Part shown: one piece after another, positions 9,313-64,000 of the stretch
Numbering within the stretch: the first letter of the stretch is position 1
Layout of the letters: each line of letters starts with the position of its first letter
Notes under the pieces: generated by a model
Databases searched by the model: none
What the model was told of the DNA's origin: nothing
The model's input: only the letters and a program-made list of their open reading frames with translations
From: Rhina ancylostomus
Taxonomy: Eukaryota
Reading direction: 5' to 3'
Assembly (NCBI GenBank): GCA_030265395.1
Contig: JARFYF010000084.1
Coordinates: forward strand, 104,773,140 to 104,837,139
DNA length: 64,000 nt
Translations under genes and position numbers: made by a program

Positions 9313-9346
9313 CACGTGACCCGACCATGTGATCCCGTCACCCAAT
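9313..9346 (-). promoter_or_regulatory. HoxA7 proximal promoter (E-boxes plus CCAAT)
   Basis: CACGTG at 9313-9318, CATGTG at 9326-9331 and CCAAT at 9342-9346, about 130-165 nt upstream of the ATG. Confidence 0.65.
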
Positions 9347-11970: not shown

Positions 11971-13864
11971 GGACAAATTCAAAATGTTGGATAGCAACAT
12001 AGTGTTTTCCAGAAATCTTGGCAAATTTCAGTTTATCTGGAACATTCTGTATTTTTGGAAATCCTATCCGTTCAATTATGTGTGTTTTTTTCATGCTATT
12101 CTAATAGATTTTTAGAATGTTATTGGAAGCTGATCGCAAACACACGAAAAAGACTTTATGCAACATTAAGATTATGTTGCGCACCAACAGATCACACGGA
12201 AAATGCAGCTGGCAACTTTACACTTCAATAGACAAAGTAGCAACTAGCACTTGATCACGGAGCATATATTTGAAATGCGATTGAATAATAACATATACCA
12301 TGTCTGTCAGCATATTTTGAAATACCTTTATATCAATTCCATTACAAGTCATTTGCTGTAGTTTGGAATCTATTATACGGCTGTAAAACTTCCACGTTCC
12401 TCTGTGCAGCTTATTAAAAGGAATGGAAGCCTAGTCTTTCTAAATTAGCATTGCGCTGTGGCAAGAATGTGCAAACACACGCATACGGATACACGTTTAA
12501 ATATATGAAGATCACCAGTATCATTTTGGAAAATATATCGTGAAATGATTATCATTCATGTTATGGTATTTGCGTGGCTATTCGACAGACTTTTGAATCC
12601 ATATACTCTACTTTTCAACGTGGTGAAAGATCGCCCTTTTTTTCCAAGCGGTAAAGACAAACATATTACCAATAAAGGAGTGTGCGATTTTGACTTACAA
12701 AAAAAACTTGTGTGAATTTATTTAAATATTCCGATTCTTGTAATAAATAGACCTTCTTTGACGCCGACCACCCCTTCGTTCATTCCAAGACCAATATGGG
12801 GGAGTTTCTATAGAGACTGCCCTTTAAAAATTATATGCTGAAATGTCGCAGTTTGACCCAACGATAAAATATTATGTAGGTGACAGTATATATAAAAAAC
12901 AAACGTGTATCCTCTTAAATCAACTTTTTTGGCTACCATTGTCAAATTTAATTGAATTATTAATGATTTCAAGAGAATTCTAAAACATAGTTAATTGTAT
13001 TTACGGGGCATTTCACGACGTCCTTATATAATAATTGTCTATATTTAAGTCTTTTGTTGCACTGAAATAGCAACTTCGCTCTGTCAAGTTCTCTGAGTTT
13101 ACAAAAAATAAAATCACATTTCAAGGATCTCTCGTTTCATACAGAAAAGGGGAAGGTTATATATATGTGCATAATTGGACGAACGTAATACTGCAGCTGA
13201 CTGAATATGATATATTTTCTGGTATTAGGGTTGATTTTTTAATATATTATAACAACTTGAAGTCTAATTGCAAAATATATAGGTGAATTAATCATACAGA
13301 TTTTATTTTCCTTCAGAGTGTAACGTCTAACTGGATTCCACCTGCTTTTCTTGAAAAAAATCACCATAGACAACGTACATGCAACCATATGCATGTAACT
13401 GCATGCGTGTCTGCCTGAATACATGCATTTGTGTTATATTTGCGTGGATGAACGTACGTATTCATGCACGTAGTTTATATGCACGATTTTATGTACGGAT
13501 ATTAAAGATTCGTTTTCAAGTAACTCTTAATCGCCCTCCATTATTGCAAACAGCACAGTAGGACTGAGGTATGCAGTGGAAGATAATCAATTTAAATCGT
13601 CTTATTGTACATTAAAAATAAAACACTTAAAGTACAAATGGTTTTTGAGACCCTGTGCGAAGTGGAATTAATCTGTTCACAAATGAGTTGATGGATTCAA
13701 AATGAATATACTCCATCGACCACAGTCCGATTTTACAAGTGTCATTTGTCGTAGATGTTTTCATCCTATTTACAACCTACTGTATAAATAAATCCCAGCA
13801 TATAGTAGTTATTGCACTTTTTGGCAGCTTGGCGGCACTCTTTTTAAACTCTTTTGTGGATTAA

Positions 13865-13883
13865 TACCGCCATCTCCTGGCTG
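13865..13883 (-). promoter_or_regulatory. CTCF-like motif between HoxA7 and HoxA9
   Basis: The minus strand reads GCCAGGAGATGGCGGTA, matching CCNNNAGRKGGCR. The position corresponds to the known A7|A9 boundary. Confidence 0.6.
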
Positions 13884-15859
13884 TAGAGCGACCCTACTGC
13901 GAAGAAATTGCTGACCGTGAATGCCCAGAAAGCTTTTTCTGAACTGTGTTGAATCTAATAACTTTATTGATTTTAATCAGGTATTTTATTACATCTACCA
14001 AATTTAATATCAAGCATTTTAAACCAGGCTTAAAAATTACGAAATATCGGTTATTTTTCCACTAGACGCAATAAATTGGTAAAGAGATATGTGAGGGGCC
14101 CACGTTAGAGACGAGACTAATAAAGGTCGTTATTTCCGCAGACCCTTTTGTCTAAGCAGCCAGACAAAACAAATGGATGGCCTTCCCTGGAAAAATACTG
14201 ATTGTAGCTGGACAGTTGTAAACTCATTAAAACCTGAATTCCAGACGGCTTGCCAGACCCTTTATTTTATTGCAAGTCTCCCTGTTTAGTCTTTGAAGTT
14301 CCATATGCAACAACAGAGGGCGTCGCGACATTATAACCCTCCAGACTGAACACTTAAATATAAAATAAAGCAATTTCAATTTACCAACTGTTTTAATATC
14401 ATAATAAAAATTTATTTTAATTACTGTAAGCCCTATTCGTGTGTTTGCTCTAGACATGAAGAATACTTCGATCGTCGGTGTTGTGTTTATGTACTTCGCC
14501 CCTTAACCTCCAGCGTTTTACACCCCATAAACGCTTACAGCAGTCATTTTCTTTTATTGCGGTACACCACTCTGAATTTTACTAACGACAGCCACTGCCA
14601 AGACTNNNNNNNNNNNNNNNNNNNNNNNNNNNNNNNNNNNNNNNNNNNNNNNNNNNNNNNNNNNNNNNNNNNNNNTTCGGGGTTTTAAAAAGTTACTAGG
14701 GATCTTACAATTAGAGAGGAAGTCGCATAGATGGCCAAATCGTGTACTTTTTGTTAGTGGTGAAACGCTTAAGACTAATTTAACTTCCTTTGCTTTCAAA
14801 GGCTCCAAGGCTTTTGTGTTGATTTGTTAAGGAAATGGCGGCAAGGACGAGACCAAGCTGAAAAAAAAATATATATATATATATAGTTATTCGCTTCATT
14901 ATAATATGATTAAATCCCAACTCGGGCAACCGGATCAAGGTTATCCATTTCCACTTCGAGTAAAAGCATTGCATTTCTTGCATAAGTAACCATAAGTAAC
15001 CCACCACAAATCTTATAAATAGCCAGCCACATTGGAGCACGGCCAAGCGACAAATACAAGTTGTTGGTGCACTTTTGCAGGTTCTCGGGTTAATTGGTGA
15101 TAACTGGGCGTTAAGCGCAAATGTATTCAGACCCTGCGTTATCAAATCCGCTTTCCAAAACAAAGTTGCTACCTCACCGTTTATGATCCCTTTTTTCGGA
15201 GAAACCTCAAACTCTGGTCGAGTTTTAGGTAACAACGAAACATCCCATGTTTATTCCAGGAGACCCAGACATTGAATTACATTTTGAATGCCAGGACTTT
15301 GGAAAGAAAGCTAATAGCTTTTGTTGAAGTAATCGCTAAATTTTGCAAAACTGTGTGTTGACATTAGAGACTGTGTGTTAGTAGTAAATGGGATTAATTT
15401 CTTGAAATTGATAGATATTCTTGTTACTTCATTATCCAGCTGTTGTAAAGTTTGGGGTTTGATTCTGATACTTCAGATCTCAAAACATCCGTAAAGAGAC
15501 TGATGAATATTTTTGAAAATGCTGTAAGTACGACGAGTTTCGAAAATTCCGAAATCAGGGCGGAATTGATGAAATATAGTCGGGGCCAGAGTCCTATGCA
15601 TTTCCATACATTGGATTCCAAGAAGCGAAACCATGTTTTATGTAGTGAAACATATATTTTATTAGACAACAAATAAAATGACATTTCATTACAAACAGTA
15701 TAGTTTGGTCAATATGACACGAGGTATTCATTTCAAACGTGTACACAAGTTTAAATGTGTTAGCTCGGCAGGTCCAAAGAAAACCCCATTTAAAACACAT
15801 TAATGGTATATGTTCTTTCTATTGCACCCAGATATTTTCCTTGTATTGTACACATTACA

Positions 15860-15865
15860 TTTATT
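15860..15865 (-). terminator. Candidate distal poly(A) signal of HoxA9 (a proximal candidate is at 16031-16036)
   Basis: TTTATT on the plus strand (AATAAA on the minus strand), about 0.9 kb after the stop and just beyond the miR-196 sites. Confidence 0.5.
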
Positions 15866-15935
15866 GACAATATTGTTTCTTTCATCGCATAAATGCAACT
15901 AGACAGTTTTAAGAGTGACATTTACACACAAAACA

Positions 15936-16544
15936 TAGGTAGTTACTAGTTATACATATAGGTAGTTTTAAACCAAATCTTATACTTTTCTTTGCACCAC
16001 AACACCGATAAATAGAAAGTGTTTGAGAACTTTATTCGTGCTTTCATCACAATAGACAATAGTATCGTGTAGCAGTATGTTCAGCGCTGCCCTTTTAAAT
16101 AAAACTTATATTAGCATTCTATGCAATTCAGTTTCATATATTTGCTGAAGAACAACACAATCGTCATGCACCCAGCAAGGCCGTTAGTCTCACAAAGACA
16201 GCATAAAGCCCGGCGTTTTTACAAGTTAATTCACAGTGAAAATAATACAATATATGTCCCAAGTTCACCACGAAAATAACATTTCATATCCAACACACAG
16301 CCTGTTAGTTTTATATTAAACATCCTGAGTTGAATTGAGATTTTTCTTTTGTTTGTTTACACGATCTTTACTCAGACACCGCCCAAGCACAGAGGCCCAG
16401 TCACAGAGATAATCACAACAGACACAAGGATTCAAGTATATAGGCAGCCTCGTTTGCTGCATGTAAAACAAGTAAATATTAAACTACTACAGTATTACTG
16501 AATTACTGTCCGCGTAGAATAGCGGTGAATTAAAAGAAGGTAGT
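15936..16544 (-). promoter_or_regulatory. miR-196 seed sites in the HoxA9 3' UTR
   Basis: The plus strand has TAGGTAGT at 15936-15943 and 15959-15966 (8mers) and AGGTAGT at 16538-16544 (7mer). Confidence 0.75.
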
Positions 16545-16780
16545 TTTCATGTAAAGGTAGATTCCGTAGCCACAGACTTAACCTTGCCGTAGATGTCTCC
16601 CTCTTTGGTTCCCGTCTAACAAGTGTATTAGTCTTTCCCAACAAGTATAGTCCAGAACTGGCAAAGGAATAATTTGTGCTAATGGCATGATAGAATGTTC
16701 ATAATGTCTTTCTAAGCAGGGTCTGTTCCGATTGCAATTGTGAATTAGTCCTTATCTCTCCCAAAATAATTTAATCCGTG

Positions 16781-17521: not shown

Positions 17522-17573
<52 letters not shown>
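17522..17573. repeat. (CA)n microsatellite in the HoxA9 intron
   Basis: About 26 uninterrupted CA units. Confidence 0.97.
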
Positions 17574-24034: not shown

Positions 24035-24118
24035 AACTGCAGTAATTCAGGCAGTTTCGTGTTGTAGAGTTAGACTTTAGCCCCAACAACATGAAACTAC
24101 CTAAATCACAGGTCAGTT
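24035..24118 (-). ncRNA. mir-196: miR-196 precursor (HoxA-cluster copy, positional ortholog of mammalian mir-196b); mature 5p at 24103-24082
   Basis: The minus strand reads AACTGACCTGTGATT-TAGGTAGTTTCATGTTGTTGGG-loop-CTACAACACGAAACTGCCTGAATTACTGCAGTT. This is an exact miR-196 mature sequence with a complementary 3p arm, in the canonical position between Hox10 and Hox9. Confidence 0.97.
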
Positions 24119-41797: not shown

Positions 41798-41848
41798 TGA
41801 CGTGGAAATGTATCTCCATACATCGCAGGGACAAGCCAGTCATGTGAC
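41798..41848 (-). promoter_or_regulatory. HoxA11 proximal promoter (TGACGTGG and GTCATGTGAC E-box)
   Basis: TGACGTGG at 41798-41805 and GTCATGTGAC at 41839-41848, 120-170 nt upstream of the ATG. Confidence 0.55.
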
Positions 41849-44112
41849 CAGATGCCTGGAGAAATTGACATGCATCACTTTGGATTCCCCCCTCGCACCA
41901 GGAGCGCAAAGCTCTTTACAACTGAGCCCTGCACATTTCTAACCGGGGAAAGGAAAGCTCGAATAATACTGTGAAGGTGTTCAAGCTTCGCACCAGAGAC
42001 GCGTTTGGCACATTTACTTCATGTCTCTCCAACAAGCTGACTTGAACCAAGAGCAGACATGGAAGTAACTTATAACGATTTCCGCAGCAAAAAAAAAATC
42101 AAACACTGCTTATTTTTTTAAAGAGCGATTTTCGAATTATCACACATACGCATTGCTACTGCAGGAAAAAAAACCGGGAACATTCGACATTTTATTGGAA
42201 AATAATCCCCTTATCTTTCCTCTTGTCACTTTAATGAAAGGCAACGTGCAGCATATTTATTTCTGCAACACAACATTTGTGAATGGATGGATAAGTAATA
42301 ATCAAAACTGTGTCAGAATCTTACCGCAAATATGGTGAGAACATATTTTTCAATGAATAAATCATAATTTATCCGCCAATATCCCCTCTATTTTCAACCC
42401 CAAATATCCTCCCCCCTCCGGTCCCACCTCCCCCTTCCACAAAAAATAAAACACGGGAGCATACAATCATTTGTAGACCCCCACAAAGATTTAGGGAGGA
42501 TAAGTTAGACTGACGACAAGTTCGAAATGGATGTGAGCTTGTTTGTGTCTTTGTGACTGTATCCAAATCGACATTAGGTTATTTTTCCCCATAAAAATTG
42601 AATCCGCACGAATCAGCCAAATGTGTTTCTGAAAATTGTTATGGTGCTTCTGATTTGAGGACAAATGGGACATGGTCACGTTCAACACCACATACAAAAC
42701 CGGCGCCCTCTCAGCACAGTTATATAAATCCTGTATCCATTTAGCTGGATTTCAAGAAATATTACCGAAAGCAATCTAAGATTTAGCCAATCTTCACATT
42801 TCAGGCGGAGTGCTTCTGAACATGTTGTTCACGACGGAACACTTGCAATTATTTGTAAAAAAAAGTTTAGGACGAAACAAGGCGTGAACAAAGCGGAATA
42901 AAAATCTGTTTGACATTGGCCGTGGGCACATTGTTCTATATTTCTATAAAATCTCAACAAAGTCACATGAATAAGAAGCAGAGTTATATTTAATGTGTTT
43001 CAGATTAAATAAACAATGGTCTTAGTTTGGCGAGGGAAAGATTAATTAAAGAACCTCCAATAAAGTGCATTTTATTTAGATATATGACCACTGTCTAACA
43101 AACTGTATGGTTTAAATGCACACTAAGAGTTTGAAAGCCATGCAATGAATCCTGGTGCTGTTGAATAGAATGGTACCATAGATAAGAGTTGAAGTTAAAC
43201 TTTGCTTTAAGAATTTGTCACATATTAGCTTATTGCTGTTCCAAAAACAATCGCGCAGTGCCAAAACAAACAGGTTTCCTGGGGATAAGGACCTTTGCCA
43301 TAAACATTTGCCAGAAAGACCTAACTCTAAATTAAGTTCCGTGCACAGTATCTTTACGAGCAACCGTGTTAGTTGCAAGTTAATAATTTAATCTTTTTTT
43401 CTGATTGTTTCGTTACGATAAGTGCACAACACTGCTATGAAAAGTCTGCAAAATACTCGAAATGCAGATTTTACTTATTTTTCTGGCCCGCGCAACCGAC
43501 TAAGCCACTAGCTATAAAAATAAGACTATCTTATAAAAGAGTAATGCTAGATTCCGAAAACATCGAGAATGTTAATAGGATTTTCGAAGCCATAATTTGT
43601 AACAAGGCTTTGCAATACTCAATGTTAAGATTCTTTGTGTAATTTCACCGTTGGTCAACCGCCTATCTCTACAATAGACTCTGGTACACAACTGCATTTT
43701 TATTTAACTTATGCACATTTAAAAATATATACGCACGGAATAGAATGAAAAAGTGAAGCTATCCTGTGATATTTGACAGTTTGAAATTAAGATCCAAATT
43801 AATTCACATTCAGTTGTTTAAAAACGATTTGCGATGAGATAGATTTAGTCACTGTGGTCAAAGCTGCAGATATAAAATGTGAAAGTTCGTGATTTTTAGA
43901 AAATGAAAGGAAGTCCAGTGGGAAAATGACACGATCTGTCCCGATACCAACAGACAAATTCCGGCACTGTGCTTTTCATAAAATAACTAAATATAATCCG
44001 CCTACGAGAACCGAGAGCGGTTTAGCCTGACCTGTGGTTTTAATAGCAGTTTTGACAACCAGCTTTACCAGACGCCCGCATAGACATTGTAGCTGACCAG
44101 GGGTTAGCTAAA

Positions 44113-44129
44113 GACGCCACCTACATGGA
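44113..44129 (-). promoter_or_regulatory. CTCF-like motif upstream of HoxA11
   Basis: The minus strand reads CCATGTAGGTGGCGTC, within a GC-richer block. Confidence 0.4.
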
Positions 44130-47100
44130 ATCCCTGACATTCCCAGCTAACGTGAGCAATCAGGCGTTCCCAAAAGCGTCAAGGACGCGGTCTTTGTCTG
44201 ATAAAAATCGGACTGAATTTTGAAAGAGTGAGCTTTTTAGCTGCTCGTTGCGCGTTTTTACTACCAGTGGATCAAAATCTAATCTCTTGTCCCTTTTCTT
44301 TCCTACGAAAGGACTGGGTTTTGCGTGCATGGATTGCTGTATGCTTTAACGCCATATGCCTATAATTTTGTAGAAATAACAACAAAACAAAGTTACAGCT
44401 ATTTAATAATCCTCCAAACTAAAAAGGGAAAGCTGCGATTGAGTTTCCGTTTAAATAAAGCTGAAAATGAGCTAAAATGCAGTCACTATCTTAATCGCTG
44501 CGCCATTTTCCAGCCATCTGTATTTCTCAGTTATCATACTTCCTCTGCAGTAAGTATAGTCCTTTTTTTTTAATAGTTGTTTTTTAGTTATAGATTCAGG
44601 ATGAAATTGAATTATTTTTTAAAATTTTTTATTGATCTCTCAGCTTTCAACAACACAGTCAGGCAATGTTAAAGAGATAGTTCCAAGAAAAATATACCTA
44701 CCTTGTTGATCTTTTATTAGACGCAAACTGCGGCCATTTGGTTGATATTTGATGGGAATGAAATCTAATGTAAATGCCGAAGTTTAAGGAGATCAGTGAA
44801 TTATTGCGGCGCAGGCTATTTTTCTGCAGGAGTCCAACTCCGTGGGAGAGCTGAGACCCGGATGAAGTTGAATTTCTTCACACTGAGGTGTACTTCGAAG
44901 CTTTGTTGAAGATATTGTTAGAAACGAAATGGGATCAAAAATTTCCGTTTCAAAGTTTGTCATCAAAAGGTAGTCCCAATATAAGATAGGGGGTCAGGCG
45001 AAGTTTTCATCTGAGTTTTGCGAGGGCTTTGCAAGAGCGGGCAACCGACTTAACATTGAACTTCAACTTTGAAAAACGTTGTACAAGCGAAATGAATATA
45101 TTTCTCAAAAACAAGAGTAATATCACGCGAAGTTATTTTTTTCAGTACGAAAGCATCTTAAATCTACTGTCGTCTTGAAAAATAGCTAAATACTTGGATC
45201 ATGGCCTGCCCCCACTTGTAAAATAAATTGTGTCATTAATTGACTCTGACTAGAACAGTAAATGAAAATACATTTTGTCGTGTTTGGATTCATTCATTTT
45301 CAAGTCTCACTATCCATGTGGAAAAGCTGAAAACTATATTTTCAGCAATGGAACTTATACTATCACCGTCAACCGAATCACTACGGAATGAAAACGGCCA
45401 GCCATATTGTGCCTTGCAGGCTTTACAAGGAATTGTGTCGCATTAGTTCTTCATTTCTTCCCACGAATTACATTGGACCGTAATTAAAGTTGGCAAATGA
45501 AGCAACATATGTCTTAATTGCGTATAACAGCAGAGCATTTTGCTATATTATGCCCCAAGCTAATCTTTTAACGCGGCGTATTCAAACACTTCTCCAATAT
45601 TTCCTTTTGTCCCCCTAGAAGACAAATTAAAAGAGCATCTTCGCGCATTAAGGGATAATGGCTATTTCCTGGTGTAATATGAAATTTTAGCTTGGAATCT
45701 TTCAACGACAGTAACCGCGGTCCTCTAACGGAATTTTTCCATTTTAATGTAATACCCACTTTAAGTTATTAGGTCAAAAATAATCTGGTTCTGGAATTGG
45801 TACAATAAACTGCGGAAGTTTATAAATCGAAGCAATACCATTCTTCTTTCTAAGCCAATGGTGTGAAATCAACTCAAATAAAAACAAATCCCTTCTTGAT
45901 GATTGGGAGGGTAGGGAGGCCTACAATGTCTTTATTTTATTTTTATTTTTCTTCAACCAAAGATATTCCGAGTCCCAAAATATAAAATGAAAACGCTTGG
46001 CTTCAGAAGAGTGCACTCCTTTTGAACGAAAATCCATGTTGTTTTTGTTTTGTGTGCTCGGTTGTTTTGTCCCCTTGTTCAGTGGCACTGACAGTGACAA
46101 GACAACGGTAACTGGCCGCCATTTTTATGCCTGATGCCTCCGAAATTTTACACAAAAGTTCAGTTAAACACTGGAAGAAACTTGCAGCTGAATAGGAGGA
46201 TGCGTTGCATTGATAAAAACACTTCTCTTAAAGCCGCAAAAAAAAACAGGTCCAGAATTAAAAGGGTAAAGCTCCCAAGTGGATTGTTGTACTTGAATTT
46301 GAAAACAATGCCAGAGTTCTATCGTTTTTTATATTTTAATTTTTTTGTTGACCTGCAATAGGGTTCTTAAATGACCGTCACATACAATGCACATTGAATA
46401 TTGTGGCCGGTAATTGAGCAAAAATAATATTTTCAACTTGTTTTTCCAATGTACTTTTTGTGCCCCATGAAAGCCAGTGAAGCACGGTCATGTACGCATA
46501 TTTAATTTTAAAAAAGGCAATGAAACCAAAGGTCATTCCGCAATGGAAGTTGCAAATGAACATTTTATATTTTTAATTGTTTGCGAGGAAGTTTGTCTTA
46601 TTATCCGAAATCAACTTCTTATGTTATGTAAGGTTTATGTGTTTCTGTAGCATTTGCCATTCGGAATATCGCGCTTCTGCTTTGGTAAGTATGGATGATC
46701 TTGATTCCGATTTTAACCTGCATTTTTTCCCAATAAAATTGCAAAATTCTATGGCATGTTTTATTGTGACAATTTGTGCATATTTTTCAATAAAACCCAA
46801 AACCTAGAGCTCAAAGGTGTCAACTTGTCCAGTGATGCAGGGGGGAAAAGAACCCTCAGCGGTGATTTTAAAAGTTCACGACGGCAAAATAAACGGATCA
46901 TTAATTAATATTGAGGCTTCTCTTTTGAACAATTGGACCTAACCGTCATAAAATTACCGTTTTATTTACAAATAAACACTACACTTCGCTTCCGAGCATT
47001 TTTGAGTCTATGATGCGCGAATTTATTTTGAACTATTAATTCATTATCATTTTTGCAAGCAACGTATATTTGAGATGCACTGCTGAGTTCACGGGATAGT

Positions 47101-50100
47101 TTTAACCCTAGCACACACAATTTAAGAAGTTNNNNNNNNNNNNNNNNNNNNNNNNNNNNNNNNNNNNNNNNNNNNNNNNNNNNNNNNNNNNNNNNNNNNN
47201 NNNNNNNNNNNNNNNNNNNNNNNNNNNNNNNAAGAAGTTGAAGAGTTACCCTTTAGACACAGTAGTATTTCAGCTCTATGTCTAGGACCTCGAGATTCAT
47301 GAAGTATAAAGATATGAAGGTTGAGTAAAACCAATTAATAGTTCAGCGGCGAATTTCGGCAGTAATTTTTCCACGAAATTACATACAAAAAAGTGAAGTT
47401 TCGTCCTAATCGACTCACTCTTTAATTACAATATATAAGCCTAGCCGAGCCTTACTCAATACCGAAATATCTCCAAGGTATGGCAAATTTCATCTGAACT
47501 GTCGGATTTGAACTTGAAAGCTCCTTACTTTGAACTTGGCTAGTAGTCACAGATCGGAATTTCAGAACTCCTTTGGTTAAAAGGTACACTATACACCTCC
47601 ACATGGCGTAAAATCTGGAACTATTCCCTTCATTTTCAGATGAATTCTTCCAGCGCTCTAATCCTCAACCTTTCAATAGATAGCCGCCGCCTCAGAATGC
47701 ACAGGTGCGGTGGATTCGGAGCATTTCCCGTAGCCTCATGTTAATCCAGTGCCCAGTCGCTATACTCAGATAAACACAGAAGCGGCAACCTCCTAATTGC
47801 ACCTAATCTTTGGTAGGTTAGCATATTCCNNNNCGTGATGCAATTGTCTCCCAGTTGAACATTCAGGACCAACACACGTCGCGTATGTGCTCACTAACTC
47901 TGCAATATGACAAAACGTCTCAATCCCTTTACCTGAAAGAATATATGAAAACCAAAGTGAAACTCTGGAATTATGTAAAATGTCAACAACAGGACAGGCC
48001 CGCGACTGCATGCGTCAAAGACGAATTGAACAGCGTTATTTCATGAAAGCTAAAATTAACGAATTGTAACTGTATTTATTCTATGCTTTATTGAAGAGTT
48101 GTGTAAGTTACTTTGGAGGCCATAGTTCGGAATACGTTTAAATATATTTCTTTGTTATCCCGATTGCAGAACGTAATAAATGTTTTGAGCTCAATGGGCA
48201 AAGTTCAAACCGCTATTTGCTGCTTCAGTTTTTAAATAACGTTTGTTCACAGAACTACGAATGAAATTACTACTGGAACTTTTATTTTATCTGTTTATAC
48301 ACATCTGTCCCATTTAGAGATGGGAAGTAAACATTTTACTGCTAATTCGTGAAGTATTTAAAAACAAATCACATTAGCAAAGAAGTGAGAGCTTTTTCAC
48401 ATTCCGAATAGAGATGCATAAATAACACTTCACGATAATAAATATAGTTGGACAAATTTTGTACAGGGAGGAAAATGTATATCTGTATTATTTTGACAAA
48501 ACATTAAGGAACGCCACTACATTATTAGACGACTGACTGGTAAGTCGATGTAAAAACGTATCACGGAAAACCCATTCAATTGTTTATAAGCTCCACCGGA
48601 AATTAGATTTACTTTCTGAAACAATGAACACAAATATTTTAACAAAATACTTTTGCTTAAAGTTTTATACAGAAATTATTTTAATTCAAGGCACGCATTT
48701 GGCGCTGGAATGAATAATGATAAAATTGAATTCAAAGGAAAGAAAATCTCATAAATTGAATAGTTGGGTGCGATTTAAAAGAAATTCTATGTTATACAAA
48801 ATATACTTTGAATATTTTAGGAGCGCGAATTTATATTGTTAAATGTAATTATACGGATCTAATCACACATGTATAATTTTCTAAAATGTAGATTGCGTTT
48901 ATAAATACACTCTGTTTTAAATCAACATCTGAAAAGATTTTAGTGAACTGAAATACATATTCCCTTTGAAACGAATTATAACACATAAGACGCGTGTTAC
49001 CTTAATCTAATTATACAAATTTGGTTATCCAAAGACGCATTCTACACGTGAAATACTATTTGCCCTAATTTGGCAAAAATAGTACCTGAATCGTTATTAG
49101 TTTAAATCCCACATATTTGCCTGTGCATATGAATAAGCATGTATTTTATGCTAATCTATTAAAGGTTGGTTTACTGGTTGATATGTATCTATTAAAATGC
49201 AGAAAGCAATTCTTTTCATCTATTATTCTCTGGTACATAAACCGCAAAGTAAAATTCCTGGGATTGCATCAGTAGTTTATGTATTATATAATCTTTTATT
49301 TTATGAAGCTCAGTTTCGTTTCTGCACAGTATACTAGATATCTAACCGACTTAATATTGCGAGGCCATGGTACCTTATTTCCAAAGTGTTCCATTTTCCG
49401 ACATATATTGCCAGCAATGTCAAATCCAGTACATCTATTTATGGACTGCATGTATAATCTATTATAAATCAGAGTAAAACAATGAATCAACTACTTATGT
49501 ACATTCAAGTATTTTTATGTAATTAGAAACAAAAATTATAACACAAAGGTTCTATTTGGTTTTTTTTCATTCAGAAAATCATTTTTATTTTTGAATTGAA
49601 GTGACGCAATAGTATTTGATGACAATTTCTAAAGTTAATCCAACAATTTTGAAGTCAATTTGACGCGATTTTCGAAGAGCTACATACAGTGACTGTATAG
49701 TACAGCTAGTTAAAAATCCAATTTACTTAGCCCGTTGTTGAATTCAACGGAAATTTTACATTTAATATTATTTTGAAGCAATTCATAAACATTAAATATA
49801 TATTTCAGTGTTTCTTATTGTTAAGAGTGTTCGTTTTGGATACGTTAAATTGCATGGTGGCAAGTTGTACTCAGCAGCAAACGGGAAAAAAACGCATTAT
49901 GTAGCATGTATATACATGTAGATACTTCATGCAGCGCATGCTGTCTGCCTTCAGAATAGATAATAAGGCTTCACTCGAGTGAAGAGAAGAAACAATTCAA
50001 GTAAGCCATTATATCAAGATAAATGAGCTTTCAGGCTGCAGGCAGAACACATAATCGGTGAGGTGAATGGTCACATATTTTTTAAAAGTGGCAACAAGCG

Positions 50101-52141
50101 AAATGAAATCCAAACTGTGCCTTAATAGGACTTTAGCTTTCGAAAATTGCTTATAGCTTTCATCATAGAACGAATGGCGTTGATATAATTATAGATGATA
50201 CAGAGTATAGATCTCTTTAAATATAATTCCTAATGCTTTGGTTCGTACTATGCGATGTGTTTTTTTTAGAATCTCAGTCAGTGCATGCGAACTTCTAAGA
50301 ACTATATCGGAGTTAGTGATAATATTCCGTAGCACAAATTCAGTAATCCAAAATGCATTATCGTTTTCCCAATAAATTAATTTATTCGCTCGCGGCTACC
50401 ACTGAAGTCATTGAACATGCATTCATTTATTCCAAGCGAAGATCTACAGTTCAAGGTTGAACACTGGCACCAAACGTTTTCAAGAACCGAAGGCTAAACG
50501 AATTCTGAAATGCCAGTTCTAAATTATTGCATTCTTTGCTTCTCTGTGGGTATCACGGAGATAACTATACAACTAATTTTGCTTAACTCTTTATCTTGCA
50601 ATAACTAAATAACAAGAAATGACTGGACAAGTCGACAAATCTGGGCGTCCCTTTCATTGCTTAAGGACTTCGCAGCACTTTTACCTGTTGTATTTGAGTT
50701 ACTTAAGGCCCAACAAAACGTATAACAGCCGAAATAAAAATTTGCACTACATTAATTTATTTGGAAAAAAAGTGTTAATTGTCGGTTATTCCCATAGACA
50801 TTATCTGTTTTGACTGCACCGAATGGTTACTTATAACTAATAAAACATTATTTCGTTGTCTTCCCCGTAAACAGAAATTTTGCAATTTTACACAAGATGC
50901 ATCCAGAAAAGTAATAATTAAACCAGCCTTGATCAGACACAATGTGGGTGGTTCTCTTCAAGTATTTTCCAACAAATGCTCGGTTGGATTTTGCAATAGC
51001 ATGCTGTGATTGGTTCGACTGCATCATGTGATGAATGTAGAATTTTATAATCCCTCGACATTTTGACAAATCGGCTTTCATGTTGCAAACAGTAAGCCCC
51101 GGATTGTTGTTTCGGGTGTATTTGGAAAATGCACCAGAGAATGCGTAGCTTAAGGTTGATCATTAGGCATCTAATATTAACTGGGTGTAAATGTAGCAAA
51201 ATAGACCGGTTACTTAAGGAAGTCCGTTTACCTCTCAATTAATAATTCCGAGTAAACATTTTCTATAATATCCACGATAAAGTTGCGTACTCTCTGCATG
51301 ATTGTGGAATTTATCTGTAATTCTGTATGTTAAAATGAAAAGTTGCGGTAGTTAACGTTTTTAATGAAGATCAAGTTATAGTTTTGCATGTCTACTGCCC
51401 TCAGCGAAAGACAGATTACGCAACATCACATGCAATTTCCTGTGGTTTATATTTAAAATCTATGTAGACTGCATGCTTTTAAATTCTCAGAACGTCGCGG
51501 AGAATTCCTTACTGTCATTTACACGGAACATCTAAGCGATCTCTTTAGTTTTGCAAGATAGAAGTGAAATTCCGCAAATACTTGACCGGATACAGTATAT
51601 AAGAGAGCATAGCTGTCCTGCCCAGAGCAGTTAGATATAGCAATAGATAAAGGTGAAATAATNNNNNCATGGATACATAAAGACAAAAATGTTGTACACG
51701 ACCGATCATTGATAATTTGAAGATTACTCTAAAGCCTTTTTATGTAGTTCGTAATTACAATAGTGAGGAATTTTACTTGATCAGTTTGTTTACACCTTCT
51801 TTAGCTGTAGCGGTTGAAATGTAATTGGAGGTGAAAGTTAAATCACAAAACATACAGCCACATCCCAATATTCATATGGATTCTAAATTCTCTCCTTTAG
51901 GATATTAGTAAATTATCAAACCTTGGCGGAGGAAATGTAATTTATGACGAGACATTGAAATTCGAACATTTTAAATAATTTACCCGAAATTTTCCAATAT
52001 GTTGACAATGTATAAATATTCCTTAGAGTTGCTGACCTATATTGGATGCTCCCAGCTCACTCGCTGCCGGTTTATTATGCATACAATCACGTTTGGTTGT
52101 TCGTGTTTCCAACGCTCATATAAATGAATGTCCGCAGATGT

Positions 52142-52158
52142 AACAGTAGATGGCGTAC
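52142..52158 (+). promoter_or_regulatory. CTCF-like motif between HoxA11 and HoxA13
   Basis: AACAGTAGATGGCGTAC. Confidence 0.5.
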
Positions 52159-53739
52159 TTGCTCTACATATACACCTCATGACTATTCATGAGCTGTTAA
52201 TCGTCAAGGTCAAAGACTATCTGTTTTCGTCAAGGTCAAGGTTTAAGCCACCCCCACCGCACCCCCCCCCCCATCGCCCTGTCTCCATGTACAAAGCAAA
52301 GACAGAGCGTGTATTTTTACTCAGAATATGGAAACACTTGTTTGTTGCTCTCAAACTTTCAGCATATATTAATACAAACTTAGAGGTCCAGCCTACAAAG
52401 ATTGTTGACATCAAAACCCTGAACCTTTATCTGGCCGTGACATTCTCCCATTTGAAAAAGAAGGCCGGGTATATCTGCTGATTGGCAAATTCCTCGGTTA
52501 TTTCTTAGAATGAAAGCATGGTTTCCACGCATTTGGAATATCTTGCTTCACAACAGGAAGAAATCTAATTAGCCCTTTTTGATTTTTTTTCCTTAGAAGT
52601 TCTTCGCTGGTCTCATGTTTCTTAACAAAAAATATGCGACGCTGTAGTTTATGAAGACTTTTTATTCGTGAAATAATTTGTTTTAATGCAAGTAATTCAG
52701 TAGATGATAAAAAGACAATAGGCTATACAGATTAAAAGCTGCATAATAGTAATGCAAGACATATCTTAATTTCATGATTATCATTCGTGATTTAACGTTG
52801 TAACTATAATTGGTTTATATATACCAAGCAAGAGGGGAGCATGCAGATATAACAATGCAGTATTTTTTAAATACAATTGCACGCAAATGTTGTCATCTTT
52901 AAGAAGAAAGCTGTGCGCCTTAAGCCTGTATGAAGATTAATGCGATGTGAGATGTGTAATATAACTAGCAGACAAAAAAAGGCTTCATATTTAGTTCATT
53001 TGCACGGGATGAGGTCTTCGACGTTTGCAAACATTTTTTTTCTTTCCGCTCTGTAGAAACTGACGGTCTGCACTGTAATTATGAAAAGCAAGGATGCTCT
53101 TAGGTATGTACATAAGAAGAAATGTAGAGTGCTGGAATTGTACGCATTCACGTTCCCATCTGCATTGCTACTTAGAATATATTCTTCCATCTCCCTGTAT
53201 ATTAATATCTTTAGAGATAGCGCATCCCTTCCAAAGAAAACGTAGTGCGTAAACATACTTTTTATTATACATTTCACGAAATATCCCATAGCTTACCTGA
53301 GGAAAAAAATAGCATGCACTCTAGTAGCTTTTTCTTAATAACTAAACCCTTTCAGCAAGTTTTCTTTAGGTGCTTTGATGGCATTTTGCGAAGGAACTCT
53401 GTGAATCAAAGTTTTACGATTATTCTTTCTAAGTGTTTCAGTTTATATGCACTCGACAATGTTTGCCACATTTGAAAATAGCAACCCTCTCGATTCTTGA
53501 ATCATCAGTTTGATTTATTTCTGGCAAATAATAATTTGTCTTAACAAGATATTTGTACCATGTGTCTCTTGGATTTTTATTTGTGTTTTGTGGGATGTTT
53601 TAAGAAAAGTAATGTTCAGGCAGAAAGAAAAAAATCTAGCATCAAGAAAATGAGCTGAGATGGTTTTTTTTCTTCAGGCTGAGATCAGATATGTTTTAAA
53701 ATTTTCACAATAAGTCCAAGTGTTTCTGGAATTGTCGCA

Positions 53740-55038: not shown

Positions 55039-55142
55039 TGAGACTAGTGGCCGTTTTAAAAGCCCCCAAGACTGAAAAGAGATACTGAATCTCTCAGACT
55101 TAGCAGCATTGACGCGCCAGTGTCGCTGAAACCTGCCTCCCT

Positions 55143-55165
55143 ATTGGCTGCGAGTTGTCCACGTG
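55143..55165 (-). promoter_or_regulatory. HoxA13 proximal promoter (E-box plus CCAAT)
   Basis: ATTGG at 55143-55147 and CACGTG at 55160-55165, with a 12-nt spacer. Confidence 0.6.
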
Positions 55166-56365
55166 ATATGCAAAGTAGCTGATAAACATCTGAAGAATAA
55201 AAAGGTAGATGTTCCATTAGTCTAATAAAGTAACGTTTGGATATTTACGTGAACGAGTAATTGGAATAAAATGCATATATCAAAATACTACAATTCCATC
55301 GGTGCACAAAATAAACCATTTTTATGGGAATTACATAGGTGCGTTTACATGAAAATGCCTGGCCATGCCAGTAAAAGCAATATTTTGCATATGCACAAAA
55401 GTACTCAATGTTAAATCTATTGTTTTTTTGCATTTAACAAAATAAATAATTCATGCTTTATGGGGGTTACGACGTAAAGGATTTTAAATCGGTTATCTGT
55501 GCATGTTCTTGATTATCGTGCCAAGAGTTGAGTTTACCTTTGAATAGATAATTTTACGGTTCATCCTTGTTATCATATGTATCTCCTATCAATTAAATGG
55601 GACTTTTTTTTGTCAAACCAGCTGCCGCTTGAGCAAAGCCTAGCTATAGGACAGGTTAGTGTTGTACCTTACAATATACAAATAAAATCACGAAGTGTTT
55701 TCAACTAATAGGAAAATAACGTTTGGAGAAATAGGTAGTAGCAGCAATTTTATAGTGAAAAGGAAACATCTGTATGACCTTTATATTGCTTCATGACATA
55801 ACTCGTTAAACCAAATAGTAATAATGCCGAAGAAAAGTCCAAAATTATTCCGGAGTGGATGCTTGATAAAACGTGATAATTATTTGAAAAAATCCATCTG
55901 TTCACTCTCTGTGTAATATTTGTAAATAAAGTGAGCACCGGACCAGTGCATGTTGAAATCAGTCATTTCGGAAACTGAACTCATCTTACAGAATAACAGA
56001 ATTTCCATTCGCCCAGAACAATTAAATTATTTGCATGTAATAGTAGTGGTGAAATTTCTAGCTATCTTAAAAATATATTAATATCAAAGGACATTTATAA
56101 GACAGATAAGAATATTGACTAAATCTTTTCCTGCCGTTTGCCAGCCGTGATCTTGAAGTTTTTTAAACAAATGTCAGTTTTCGATTCTTCCCCCGCTAAT
56201 GCAGTCGGTTTGTGGTAACTTACTTGCTGCAAAATGTGTATTCTCTGAACAGGAAGAGTATTCACGTAACTGATTTCAAATTAAAATATCAGTAAATGTG
56301 TTTTATGGGTAACTGGCACATTTAAGTACACGAGAAAGCGATAGAATTGTGAATTATTTAATACT

Positions 56366-56383
56366 ATCTGCCACCTGGTTGAA
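56366..56383 (-). promoter_or_regulatory. CTCF-like motif 5' of HoxA13
   Basis: The minus strand reads CAACCAGGTGGCAGAT. Confidence 0.45.
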
Positions 56384-59300
56384 TTTACTAAAATCCATAA
56401 ATATAATTTATTTTATATCTAACACAGTCTTAAAGCGTTATTTGATAGATTCAACTATATTATCGCTGTATTTAGAAGTAACTTGGTGAAATCTGGGAAG
56501 AGCATGGCCATAATCCGTCCTACTAAACGTAGATATCACATGACGAAGAAGAGTAGCTGGTAAAAATGAGCAACAAAAAAATTGGGACCAACACTATTCG
56601 CAGCAATGGGTCGTCACAAAAGGTGATCTTTAATTCAATTCTAGTCACTTACTTTGTACATGGGACCTTGTGGTAAGTGCAATCAAACTCATATCCTAAT
56701 AATCGACCTCGACAACCATGTTTCAGTCAGTCGTTGGCCTTGGTTCTTTGGCTGAAGACTTGATGCCTTTAAGTGATGCAGCTGCCTAGAACAATCATTT
56801 TATTATTGAAATGCATTTTTATTCTTTATAATCCCTGCCTTCCCCTCCCCCGCGTTCTCTATCACCCTCTTTCCTGCTTTAATTGCCCTTCTCTTTATTT
56901 TCTCACTTTTTTGCCCCTCACTCTTCAGATATAGGGGACAGGCAATCGTTAAAGAAGAAAATAATCATCCTTCTTTTAATCTTATTTTAGAAAATGGAAG
57001 TAATGCGAAGCTAAATGGTTTGGAGTCGCTGTTTCTTCACTGATGCGGACCATCGTTAGTAAAACAGAGAGGCTGTTATTCCAATTATATTGCATATAAA
57101 CACTCTCCGTCGACTTCCGTGACATGAAATACTATAATTAAAATAGTCTCTCCACTGTGTCTGGAGATTTTCCACATTATCTTTCCTTTGGATATCCAAA
57201 GTGTACAACATTTTCCAGTTTATAATTGCACAGATTATACTGAGATGGGTTTAAAACATTTCACGCTGCAGTGAAATATATAGCCAAGCTAAATCGGGAC
57301 TTTCTCAATACATCTTGTGAGATTATTCTTTCAAATCTATGACCATCTTACTCGGTGGGAGCTCGTTTAGTTTATACTCCAGTGATGATTATGTGATAAA
57401 ATGATTGGTACTCCAGTGTGTCTGTCACTGAATGACAAAGATTCGCTTCCTCGCAAAATTATTAGTCGGTCGATCTTATTAGTATTATTATTTAATGTAG
57501 TTGAAGAACCTTAATTTTTCCCGTGTATTATAAGCTAACGGTCTTACTAGAATTTGTTCTGATCATAAAATGTTTTGAAAGAGCACATCTTGATCCATAA
57601 TTATTCGGTTAATGCTTAATAACGCCGTATCTGCTCAGTTAATCTCAGCAGATACACAGAAGATGAGCTGCATTTAATTATGTAGATTTGTTCCACGTAA
57701 ATATCCATTTATCAGATAAATAGGTAGCATGGGCAAAGGCTGCGCTATGTTAGAATATATTTCAATCTGAATTCATTCGAGCCACAGTTTTATACAGCGA
57801 CGTTTCTGAATTGAACATTATTTAATCAAGAGAAGGCTGCCCCTCCCCCCCAAAAAAAATAATACACGTTGAATTGAAGCAAACATTCGTCTGCGCACTT
57901 GAGTGTAGGTTGGACCACCAGCGCCTTCCGCCTTGAAAGAGTGTTATGTTAAGGCATGGGAGCGATATAACTACAATCTGCAGCATATTCAAACGGACAC
58001 ATTGCAGATTATGCTACAAAATGGCAGCAACCAAATGGGCAGCTCTTTTACATACGGGTTAGACACGGCTAAAGGCCAAGGTCAAGTTGAAAGTTGCAGT
58101 CTAGCCAATGTGAGTGCTGTCATTCACGCGTTGACGACCATGTCTGAATTCTTATAAAGGCAAGCCGTGAGAATTGACTTTTTCATTGCCGTTTTGTTTG
58201 TTTTCCTTTGTTTTCACTCACAACCCTCCAAATGAAAAAAAAATCCACTGACCATACCGTCTTCATTTCCAGGCTGTTTCTGCATGGTTGGCAAAGGATG
58301 TGAAATGGATGCAGTCGCTTTGAGATACATTGCAAATTATACAGCATTACATCCGGTTTAAATGCACTGTTTACGAAACCTCTTGTTTTGAACTGAGTGC
58401 AGTACAGGCACGCCAGTGTGTGACTTGCAAAGGTAGCGGCATGTAGAGCATGCTGAACTATCATGATGAACACTGCGCCAAGTATTGAGGGCCATACTGC
58501 GGTGCCAGGAGATATCTCCAGGCTAGGTTTCAAACTATTTTTGGATCCGTACATCACCAATGAAAATCTTACACTCTGACAAAGTGCAACAACTACATGC
58601 CTANNNNNNNNNNNNNNNNNNNNNNNNNNNNNNNNNNNNNNNNNNNNNNNNNNNNNNNNNNNNNNNNNNNNNNNNNNNNNNNNNNNNNNNNNNNNNNNNN
58701 NNNATGCCTAAGAGGTAACTGTCTAAAAGGCATCTGTGCCATGAGGTAACTGTGCCGTATTCTGAATTACTCACGAATCGTAGTAAAGTTATTTTTAGAA
58801 CTTTGCAAGGTAACAATTTATTTTTATAACTATTGTCTGCTACTTCTGCTTTCAGAGATGTTGCAATGCATCCATGCATAAGCACTCGACCTCGTTGTTT
58901 GCTACGAGTTGTCAGCCGAGATCTTTTTGCTTTGCCCTTTCTGGATGATGTTGTGAATAATATCCATAATGTACGCCTGAATACTAAATGATCGCAAGGG
59001 CGAAACTGTAACCAAGTTGTGAGAACGTAGTGCACATTGGTTAATAAATCGATACCGTTAAAACACGTCAAAAACTATTTTCTAATATGAATATTCGTAT
59101 GATAACTCGTTTAATTGCATCAACATGCGGATATCATCTACAAATTTTTTTGCGGGGTGGTTCACTGGTATATTGACTTTCCATTCATAAAAAATGTTTA
59201 CGTGATCCAGAAGGCGTCTACTTCAATTCCCTTTTTTAAAATTCTGAATGTGATCTCCAAATCGCTCCATTCAAACATCTACTACCACTTATATGTATGA

Positions 59301-61481
59301 TTCTTTGAAGCAATAAGACTTGAAAAGAATCTGTTCAACATAAATACTCACTTATTTATCTGATAAATGGGTATTTATGTGGACACACTAACATCATGAC
59401 TGTTAGAACTGGATTTTCCTTCATTTTAAGCCATCAGAGCACCACAAAATTAAACATATTTGTACCATGTCATAAAAATATGTTTAGACCACACTGTGAG
59501 TTATAGCTCATATACTTTCTATTTAATTCAGAACTTACCGGAATTCCTTTTGGAAAATGTTAAGGTCGAAAGAGGCAAGTGTTCTCAAAGTTGCTCCTTC
59601 GTTTCTTTTTCGAACTACTGCCAAGTTAATGGAGAACTAATCCCCACTTCCTCTTGGGACTGTATTTAAAAAGATAATCATAATACGCACGCTATATCTT
59701 GATTTTCTTCTACCTTTACTATCAATGAATATTTACTAATAACATCTGACAATTTAATAGTTGTTAAATAGATAATTTAATAGGTGACAATTTGATTTCT
59801 GATTTTCTACTACAAAGGTCATATGATAAGTCATGCTATTTACAATTGAATAGCCACGATCCTTCCTTCACTGTGACTAAAAGTATCTCAAATTTCTAAT
59901 ACTACAGTTTAAAAAAAGTAAAGCAATGTCTTAACCCTACTAAAAATATTCATTGTATTCCTCCACTATGCATGTGTTACCTGTGATAACATTATTTATC
60001 CACTTTGGCCTAATCAATTGTAGTAAGTTATGTTATGTCATTTTCCTAAATCAATTAAATTGCAATGGTTTCAATTATTATATGTGTTATGAGTCACATA
60101 CGGTATATATTTTGCAGATATTTGATCAACACAGCACCTCCATAAATCAAATAAAAACTTGCCAAAATATTTCATGTTTCTTTTCTGAAACATTTTGAAA
60201 TATTATCCAGTAACGTGACTGAGATCAATCAAAATGATTAATCTCTCTTGTGGTCCATGAACTGCTCAATTTGCAATACTGTAACATTCATATCAATAAA
60301 TGTACGTACAGATAGAACATGGTTCTTTCGTCACTTATTGTTGTCTGCAACGTGCACATATTATTGATGCTGAAATATGCAGCTAGGTAGACTTCATATA
60401 TGTTTTGTGCATTATTGGAAAATCACTGTTGTCTGTGAGAGGCTCGGCATAGAATACATAGATATCATTAATGCTTGTTATTACTTCAGTTGTCAAGCTA
60501 AGAGTACAGTGACATAGAAAGATTTCACATCTGAATTGTGCTGCATTGATCACTGTCATGCGTTCAGAATGAGTCTGAAACTAACAGAGGTTTCCACATT
60601 TATTGATGTCACTCCAATTTTCAATGCAAAATCACATTCATCTACATTGAGAAACACGGTTTAAGGATGCAATCTACCAAATTGGAATTAATAGCAATAC
60701 TGAATTTTAGTATATATTTTACTTGGTTCTTCACACAGATGGGGGAGCAGTTTACACTTGTCATTAAGTCCTACCTTGATTGCATATTAAGTGTGCGAAC
60801 ATTTGAAATGAATGAACCTTTGGGAAGAAAAGGAAAATCAACTGCTTCCTAACAACCATTCATGGAACTTTTGCCATATGATTATCACTGGTATTATTAC
60901 AAGTAAATGAAACCTTTAACCAAAGGATGCAATTTTGTAAAGCAAATGACGACTTTTCCGTATATGCATTCCAACGAAGTACAACTGATTTATTTTTCTC
61001 AGCATAAAACTTGAAATGCGCACATAACTCATGTGCCTTGTTCTATTCGAAATTTGCCGCTAATTTAAATAGTTTGTAACCTTTACAGGGAAAATAATTT
61101 CCTTCAAAGAGATCTGTGCATATTTTCTGCATTAGATCGAGCTACAACGCCATTTCTGCTTTCTGGACATTCTTTTCTAAACATTCATCAGAGATAACTA
61201 AACAAAAGGGTATGGTTCTGTTTCAACACTGCAGTTAATAACTGCATTATTAGTTCCAGTTAGCTGGAGGCTAATGAGCCTCTTCTCTTTCTCATGCCGA
61301 ACCCGTAATCTGAATTTGCTCTATCATGAGAAATGTTACTTCCATTTTTTTTAAAACGCTCTACAATTTGATTTGGAGTCATGTAAGGAATATTTTTTCT
61401 TTTACTTCCCATTCAGAGGGCAACCCTCCTGATTTAGTCGCCTTATATCCTTCCCCATTACCTCACCCTCGCTCCCCCATC

Positions 61482-61483
<2 letters not shown>

Positions 61484-61528
<45 letters not shown>
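61484..61528. repeat. (CA)n microsatellite adjoining the HoxA14 homeobox relic
   Basis: About 22 CA units. Confidence 0.97.
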
Positions 61529-61530
<2 letters not shown>

Positions 61531-61544
61531 CCGCACACCACTAT

Positions 61545-61711
61545 CACCACCAATTCTGCACTAGTTCCTTTTGCTGTAATGTCTCAGGCATCACAAAGCA
61601 GGTTTCCTCGAAAGCACGGTCGGGTCTTGCAATTTGGGATTTGATNNNNNGGATTCTTCTACCTATGCTGAGCCCCTGGGTGGGCAGGCCAATGTGAACG
61701 ATTGCTCTGAG
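61545..61711 (-). pseudogene. HoxA14: HoxA14 pseudogene, relic of the exon carrying the 5' part of the homeobox
   Basis: There is an acceptor tcttatttattcacag|C at 61712/61711. The phase-1 frame reads QSNRSHWPAHPGAQHR*K (TAG at 61661-61659). After a frameshift it reads RI(P x)IKSQIARPDRAFEETCFVMPET, which aligns with the Hox14 homeodomain pattern recalled as R(I/V)PYSKxQIxELExAFEENRFLTPE. Position 5' of HoxA13 on the same strand fits. Confidence 0.8.
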
Positions 61712-63674
61712 CTGTGAATAAATAAGACCCAATTATTCGATTCAACTATTTCCATTCTTACATTTATTATTAATTATGTAACGAACGCTTTATTCTTACC
61801 TAAAAAATCTTCATCACCAATTCAATGTTTATTAACTTACATGGTAACATTAGCTCCAAAGGGGCAGAATATTTATATGTACAATATACGTACGATTAAT
61901 ATGTAACCAATGTTTATGAGACTTGTATGACCATCAGGCTTGAGGTAACGAATCTCGCCCTCAGATTTCTGCAAGCAACTATTCGCTAAAATTCTTTATG
62001 TGGTTATGTCTGTGCAAGCCTACACTGATAATAAGCTCAAGGAAAACGGTTCAAAGATTATGGAAAGTTAAAAATTCATACCTTTTAAACTGACGAAACG
62101 TCATGACCCATATGTTGTAAATATAGGATATCAGTAGATTTAAAGATATATTGAACGACTAGAAAACAAGACAACATTATTTTGGCAATGTTACGTAACT
62201 GGTGCCCACAGTATGTTAAATAAATATTTCATGCATTTATTAAGTATAACCGCTAAATTAAACGCAAATAAGTACTTCAGTATAAGGCATTCCAACATTC
62301 TGGGACGTGAACATCTTTTCACAGGCCTTTAGAAGATACGTATCATTCATTTGGATTCGTTGCATTAGCATTGTTTCTGTTACAATCTGTAAGTCAATTG
62401 CATATATTTAATGTTCTGGGTGACTGTATGTTTCTTAACTTTAGTTGCTGTCGGTATTTCTTACACATTATATTGATAAGCTACATTTAAGTGCTGCTTT
62501 CGTACCTTAGAATTATTTCTTTAAATTTTTATATCCAATATTTAATTCCTGTTTATTATTATATATAGGTGGCTGTAAAAACAGATACAGATATTTCCTC
62601 GACTCTTTATTTTGTTACAGTGAATGTAAATTAATTAAAGTGTGCTTTCCGCCTTAATAAATCAATAATTCTCGGAGAATCGTCAGATTGTATATATTGA
62701 CTATCGGGCTATTATTTGTGGTGCATTTCAATAGGTAACAGCAATATCTATTTGTAAACGAATGCTTCTCTCAAAGCAGTTCATCGTTGCTTAAGGAATG
62801 TGTATTGTGACAAGACATATTCACACAAACTATCTGCTCGGTGACGGGCGTCGGCTATCTGTATAAACATATCGAAACAAATATGTTTACATCCTCGTTC
62901 ATAATTACCTCGGTGACGTTTATACGCTTCGGCGTTAAAGGGAGTTGGGAAGGGCGATCGGATTATTTTCTCTTTCTCCGGTCTGTCAGAAAGATATTTC
63001 CTGAGCAGTAAGAAACATTTCGTCACCTTCCCAATAAATTGTTTAAAAACGATGTCATCGTAAATTGATAATCTGTTCGCCTTTATTGTCGCTTTTGGAC
63101 TGGATCCTTTCTTTTTGTCAATTTAGGAACCCCAAATGTAAGACACAATCAACTTGATACCAAGCACAGTCTTAATCTTAAACTACGTTCTCTTCTGCTG
63201 TATGGAGGAAGTGTGAAACTGTAATATTCAGATCTAAATGAAGCCATGCTGAAATTAATTTAATATTCACAAGAGGTACCTTGTATCAGGCAGTAAAGCT
63301 GAGGTGTCCTATTTAATAGCATTTAAAGAAAAGTAAGGTTGTTATGATTAACAAACTTGTTTTATAGGGTTTTTTTCCGGGTATCTAATGGAATGTGAAT
63401 TATTTTAGTTAAAACAAAGAATTGCACATATTTCTGAAAACTCATAATTCTATTTGATTTCTTTAGGGTAATCGACAGTTAACCGGATCTCTGTAAGTTG
63501 ATTTTAGCCTGAAAATATTTCATGGAAGATGTTCTAAAATTGATCACAAATTTTCCCCGGTGTTAGCTTTGCACCCCGCCATACCGACAGAAGGCGGGTA
63601 ATGAATTATTCTCCGCGGGAGGAAAGGATGGCACTGGATTATCCTCAGATCTATTCATCGGAGGATGTCTTAAC

Positions 63675-64000
63675 CTGAGCAGTGAGATTAGAAAGTCGTG
63701 GGAACGCCACAGCTCCACGCAAAGCCTTCCTGACCCTTGCCTGTTCAGCCCAGGTTCAGGTCAGTCCAGGAGCTCTCGGGAATGACTGCCACTTATAACT
63801 ATTCTGATGCTGAGGGGAGCAGGCACTTTCCAGAGGCTTGACTCAGAAACTCGATCATAACCGCAGGGAGTCACTGCAAAACCTGAAATGGTTAGCGGTA
63901 AATAATAGTAACCACTGGCGCTCTGGAAAGAAATAAAAATGATACACCTATAACCCAGATTTCTGAGCCACATCATTCCTGTAATTGCTTTGTAGTGACC
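63675..64000 (-). pseudogene. HoxA14: HoxA14 pseudogene, relic of the 3' part of exon 1 (runs off the window)
   Basis: Frameshifted pieces SFQSASGYYYLPLTIS, SYKW, LT*TWAEQARVRK and ELWRS parallel the HoxA13 exon-1 motifs of this window ([41 protein letters not shown]) in the same order. A candidate donor CAG|GTTAAG is at 63675/63674. Confidence 0.62.

Follow-up and report, generated by a model that had tools for sequence, protein, structure and literature searches.

A probable unprocessed HoxA14 pseudogene, with remnants of all three exons, 5′ of HoxA13

The HoxA setting

The minus strand of the DNA analysed here, a 64-kb stretch that we call the window, carries the intact homeoboxes of five genes, HoxA13 (at 53.9 kb), A11 (39.9 kb), A10 (26.2 kb), A9 (17.0 kb) and A7 (7.8 kb). 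In searches, exon 1 of HoxA10 matched a Stegostoma cluster (25 members) at 93% identity, with the next match at 65%, and exon 1 of HoxA7 matched a Heptranchias cluster (19 members) at 94%, with the next named matches at 65-66%, identities that point to a cartilaginous-fish host. Set against HoxB7 as a yardstick, the 92.5% identity to shark exon-1 proteins is intermediate between shark-ray pairs (95-96%) and chimaera-elasmobranch pairs (87-89%). The genes that we take to be HoxA11 and HoxA9 are named from gene order and characteristic motifs. Judged from its sequence, the window is a chondrichthyan HoxA cluster, and the order A13, A11, A10, mir-196, A9, A7 provides the synteny around a remnant that we assign to HoxA14, located 5′ of HoxA13 on the same strand as the Hox genes. 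Evx1, on the other side of the remnant, falls beyond the window. The features are as follows.

63585..63976, minus strand: pseudo-exon 1, whose ATG (63976) aligns in register with the Met of the references
61712..63584, minus strand: intron 1, 1,873 nt, phase 1, with donor TCG/GTATGG and acceptor TTCACAG/CT
61574..61711, minus strand: pseudo-exon 2, recognisable part, comprising a linker with Trp-Pro-Ala-His, the homeodomain N-arm and helix 1
61321..61573, minus strand: stretch that would hold the rest of exon 2 (helix-2 codons), the donor of the homeobox intron and intron 2
61484..61528, plus strand: (CA)22.5 microsatellite, within intron 2 or exon 2
61198..61320, minus strand: pseudo-exon 3, recognition helix and C-terminal tail, with acceptor GATAG/ in exact register before a Val codon
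53740..55024, minus strand: HoxA13, the intact neighbour of the remnant (Pfam HoxA13_N, E 6e-47; Homeodomain, E 2e-20)
24039-24112, minus strand: mir-196 precursor, in its expected place between HoxA10 and HoxA9

No decayed homeobox of HoxA8 was found within 9300-16700, nor one of HoxA12 within 41800-53700, by tblastn with the window's homeodomains and by nhmmer; the sensitivity of this search is low, as the HoxA14 remnant itself escapes the same nhmmer DNA profile. Between the remnant and HoxA13, positions 58042-58181 on the plus strand match the Rfam family HOTTIP_2 (RF02041, model positions 240-374) at 69-74 bits, against a gathering score of 80, with E-values of 9e-17 and 5.5e-19. This segment is a conserved non-coding element antisense to the Hox genes; the match speaks for sequence conservation with the HOTTIP region and not for transcription. 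On both sides of it lie the arms of an inverted repeat of 34 nt (57692-57725 and 59350-59383, 91% complementary, 1.6 kb apart). Elsewhere, the HoxA9 intron contains another (CA)n array, at about 17525-17572, and a degenerate (GACA)-type repeat occupies 11867-11977 in the interval from HoxA9 to HoxA7.

Exon remnants, splice junctions and decay

The initial annotation had described a decayed HoxA14 homeobox exon 6.5 kb upstream of HoxA13, a distance of 6,521 nt when taken between 61545 and the start codon of HoxA13 (ATG at 55024). The peptide it gave is found in the sequence, and its intact-looking acceptor is present as TTATTTATTCACAG/C, with 61711 as the first exon base. The stop and frameshift it reported are also there, as TAG at 61661-61659 followed by a net loss of 8 nt relative to HoxA14 that takes out Arg-Lys-Lys, and the run of 5 N (61650-61646) does cover the expected Pro-Tyr codons, save the first C, with the frame kept. 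Because both the stop and the deletion lie at most 15 nt from this run, they may be assembly errors; the lesions in exons 1 and 3 are independent of it. The supposed break in similarity just before the (CA)n array proved half right: similarity does end at about 61574, 45 nt ahead of the array, but it resumes in exon 3 at 61320.

By homology, the remnant is larger than had been annotated, since it also includes exon 1 and exon 3, the latter having been missed. With HoxA14 queries, tblastn returns three minus-strand blocks that follow the order of the gene (63976-63654, 61706-61574 and 61299-61225), the first matching from residue 1 of the queries; each piece is weak alone (E 0.004-3). The homeobox is split before the helix-3 Val, at an AG (61322-61321) about 250 nt past the exon-2 core, and beyond this split the exon-3 similarity extends to about 61240, in a frame that stays open for 40 codons to a TAG at 61200-61198 (34-37 residues in the references).

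The previously proposed donor at 63675, and with it a 63675-to-61711 junction, did not hold up: CAG/GTT at this point is a Gln-Val pair inside the exon-1 coding homology and scores below 0 bits in a donor scan. Exon-1 homology runs on instead to a phase-1 donor at 63584, the homologous donor, and phase-1 donors are also found in the window's HoxA13, A10 and A9. With long indels allowed, the exon-1 tail together with donor 63584 was equalled by 0 of 60 shuffles and 1 of 55 control blocks; with short indels only, 23 of 40 shuffles did as well, and the inner alignment is ambiguous. The codon formed across 63585/61711 encodes Ala, which coelacanth HoxA14 also has at this junction. An alternative, a mutated donor near 63557, was rejected as unsupported (1,469 of 8,590 scan windows as good), and 63584 was taken in its place. 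At intron 2, candidate donors lie before the array, at 61536-61538, and after it, at 61466 (AGG/GTGAGG, with Glu-Arg codons ahead); neither reaches significance. The last 12 exon-2 codons plus an intron-2 donor were matched by 75 of 150 shuffles, and the best candidate, 61466, by 8 of 418 blocks and 35-40 of 400 shuffles; this donor would put the (CA)22.5 array inside exon 2, which is suggestive only.

The HoxA14 remnant is dead as a protein gene. Exon 1 carries a frameshift near 63841, a TGA at 63758-63756 where the references have Cys, a second frameshift near 63653 and a deletion of about 30 nt in its tail, and in exon 3 WFQNQR has become RLRVRH, so that the recognition helix lacks its Trp, Phe and Asn. 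At the diagnostic Gln the codon is CGG (Arg), a single substitution away from Gln, which makes it uninformative on descent. In total, there are at least three frameshifts and two stops, WFQNQR is destroyed and the homeodomain frame is not open. The frame from the old HoxA14 ATG (63976-63761, minus strand) closes after 71 codons, the first 45 of which are homologous to HoxA14, and its survival is compatible with chance.

Among 28 readable codons that are invariant in Hox14, 13 are unchanged and the set requires 19 minimal substitutions; in simulation, these 28 codons fit neutral change at p 0.25-0.30, corresponding to d 0.30-0.38 (range about 0.2-0.55). The initial annotation had held that the lesions can date the loss, which one sequence does not allow; orthologues are needed. 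Dividing d of about 0.3-0.4 by a pedigree rate of 7e-10 per generation, the only rate that we found (PMC10587355, in its available text), gives 4-5e8 generations, an age that we rejected as too old. Because this figure is implausibly large, the decay estimate says just that the loss is ancient.

A reading that shares the same origin holds that the locus putatively still gives rise to a transcript, spliced from 63585 to 61711 and on to 61320, which would be a non-coding RNA or encode a 71-codon product, under Hox control and partly under selection. We consider this unlikely. The ATG, both AG acceptors and the GT of the intron-1 donor do survive in register, yet seven independently placed signal bases would survive neutral decay with P 0.08-0.13, and the persistence of the ATG and two acceptors is compatible with such decay. 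The intron-1 donor, chosen partly for its GT, is weak, at 0.8 bits where three intact Hox donors score 5.2-6.1 (with textbook frequencies as weights), and the intron-2 donor is not identifiable. An AATAAA does lie about 200 nt past the exon-3 stop, but this hexamer is common in AT-rich DNA; Rfam gave no match over the remnant, and the promoter falls outside the 64-kb window. For an RNA spliced at the old sites, nonsense-mediated decay would be expected, because the stop after 71 codons lies far upstream of the first junction. Either state has a precedent, since the hoxd14 pseudogene of bowfin is spliced, with expression in the fin bud, vent and tailbud, whereas that of gar is without evidence of transcription (PMC8423624). 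We found no report of a transcribed chondrichthyan HoxA14 pseudogene in the literature searched, a weak negative given that most subscription papers fell outside the search. Also doubtful is a fuller scenario in which the HoxA14 protein was lost once, early in chondrichthyans, and the locus is a putative spliced three-exon unit under Hox control, with selected splice sites, overlapping a HOTTIP-type region 5′ of HoxA13. If true, a Hox gene would have turned into a regulatory RNA.

Assignment to HoxA14

General resources are blind to the remnant: Pfam returned no family for either of two candidate queries in the exon-2 frame, tblastn with the window's five homeodomains gave no match at the exon-2 locus up to E 20, and the ESM Atlas gave no usable match for the exon-2 remnant. 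Hox14 references were therefore required. We built a profile from the candidate exon-2 core and pieces of the window's homeodomains and ran it on 1.84 billion representatives; 4 of the best 150 matches carried WFQNQR, which PMC3509897 describes, in its available text, as diagnostic of Hox14. A search with one of these WFQNQR proteins brought 10 Hox14 proteins among 51 candidates at E <=1e-25, three from lobe-finned fishes (one named HoxA14, from Neoceratodus) and seven chondrichthyan. P0271 is the sole HoxA14 named as such by its source, P0272 and P0165 being assigned by similarity and tree; the seven chondrichthyan proteins, under other automatic names, were taken as HoxD14 from literature and tree. 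Name searches will undercount Hox14, as nine of these ten proteins (P0165, P0184 and P0272-P0278) are named Hox-B9a-like, D12-like, C10-like, C11-like, A4-like or php-3-like.

Twelve query sets (three HoxA14, four of the seven HoxD14 and the window's five paralogues) were then scored with a frameshift-aware aligner over 55100-64000. In exon 2, HoxA14 reached 69-81 and HoxD14 52-65, and all seven Hox14 queries exceeded 100 of 100 block shuffles. None of the paralogue groups compared matched better: groups 7, 9, 10, 11 and 13, represented by the window's own genes, stayed at background, with scores of 20-28 that 97-100 of 100 shuffles also attained. Counted as minimal substitutions, the 5′ part of exon 2 requires 10 over 15 codons, a fit found at the site itself alone among 8,563 scan windows, and the core requires 11 over 23 codons, a fit equalled by 0 of 8,473 windows (the site itself left out for its N). 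Because the candidate's exon-2 core sat in the profile that fetched the references, exon-2 scores are not wholly independent; neither exon 1 nor exon 3 was in that profile, and their recovery is therefore independent.

In exon 1, HoxA14 scored 54-63, equalled by 0 of 30 shuffles for each of three queries, and the window's paralogues 27-38 (15-30 of 30 shuffles); residues 1-50 and 51-100 were each matched by 0 of 40 shuffles. In exon 3, HoxA14 scored 41, 36 and 37 (0, 5 and 5 of 100 shuffles) and HoxD14 27-31 (19-78 of 100). The exon-3 fit requires 22 minimal substitutions over 27 codons, where the null averages 43.4, and is found at the site itself alone among 8,455 scan windows; its first seven codons alone are weak, with 467 of 8,635 windows as good.

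These scores bear on a second alternative, that the remnant is a HoxD14 copy, or of another Hox14 origin, or else a decayed HoxA13 duplicate. HoxD14 queries do match exon 2 as well, and two of the four reach 42-43 in exon 1 (equalled by 1 and 3 of 30 shuffles, within a HoxD14 range of 29-43 at 1, 3, 23 and 30 of 30), but HoxA14 outscores HoxD14 in every exon, and grouping of the remnant with HoxD14 is rejected by an AU test (p 0.03), in a comparison among HoxA14 and HoxD14 references. A tree of 13 whole proteins places the remnant with HoxA14 at 99/99, on a long branch; a tree of the homeodomain alone leaves it unplaced, on a very long branch. As for HoxA13, the window's copy is at background in all three exons, the remnant's homeobox is split, unlike that of HoxA13, and the position is that of HoxA14. 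Such origins are already largely refuted, and we regard them as very improbable. Chance similarity or a repeat has a negligible probability: Pfam and the Atlas were blank and single-query E-values are modest (0.004-0.25 for Hox14 at exon 2, within the window), but three colinear blocks on one strand lie above controls with acceptors in register, and no dispersed repeat family covers the exons.

The HoxA14 origin thus follows from three exon remnants that are colinear and lie on the same strand as the Hox genes, from a homeobox interrupted at the site typical of Hox14, and from closest similarity to HoxA14. All of exons 1, 2 and 3 are recovered, matching the three-exon structure given for HoxA14 in the available text of PMC3509897. 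The assignment to a HoxA14 pseudogene made from exon 2 has come out stronger than claimed, with three exons in place of one and with A14 favoured over D14, and the remnant is probably an unprocessed, unitary HoxA14 pseudogene in its ancestral slot 5′ of HoxA13.

Proposed history and known relatives

We infer that the vertebrate genome duplications would have left HoxA14 redundant with HoxD14, that cartilaginous fishes kept HoxD14 while selection on the HoxA14 protein lapsed, and that the locus would then have decayed in place, by some 0.3-0.4 substitutions per site. Slow change in these genomes and the exclusion of transposons from Hox clusters may explain why it can still be recognised; PMC2746220 describes slow evolution and a scarcity of repeats. 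The remnant yields no homeodomain protein.

The remnant is well supported and of an already known kind. It confirms HoxA14 in the jawed-vertebrate ancestor and the pattern in which cartilaginous fishes lost HoxA14 and kept HoxD14, the mirror image of lobe-finned fishes, both points being already accepted. What it adds is a precise map of the three exons and their lesions, with which it becomes cheap to test whether chimaeras, sharks and rays share a single loss or had several, and whether splicing persists at the locus as in bowfin. A horn shark HoxA14 pseudogene was reportedly described in 2004. The authors of PMC2746220, in the text available, believed Hoxa14 absent from skate and horn shark, a statement that would need qualifying if a shark or ray had a complete remnant of three exons.

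The closest counterpart is the elephant shark, for which PMC3707753, in its available part, gives HoxA14 and HoxB14 pseudogenes; its HoxA14 pseudogene resembles the remnant in gene, cluster, animal class and disabled state, and were the host that very species, the locus would have been described before. Group-14 pseudogenes are described for several cartilaginous fishes, with independent mutations inferred (PMC3509897, available text). The HoxA14 genes of coelacanth, lungfish (P0272, P0271, P0165) and caecilian share its three exons, split homeobox and start and junction registers, and lobe-finned HoxA14 provides its best similarity in all three exons; the lobe-finned and caecilian genes are intact, whereas the remnant has no open frame and its WFQNQR and Arg-Lys-Lys arm are destroyed. 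In the portion of PMC11600591 at hand, Hoxa14 is intact in caecilians and a pseudogene in turtles and crocodilians. The latter likewise persist as recognisable exon remnants in slowly evolving genomes, but represent a separate loss in the tetrapod line. The bowfin hoxd14 pseudogene, as described in the available text of PMC8423624, is similar in being a Hox14 gene with stops and a kept split-homeobox junction; it differs in lying in the D cluster, in keeping WFQNQR and in its demonstrated transcription and splicing, whereas the HoxA14 remnant has lost that motif.
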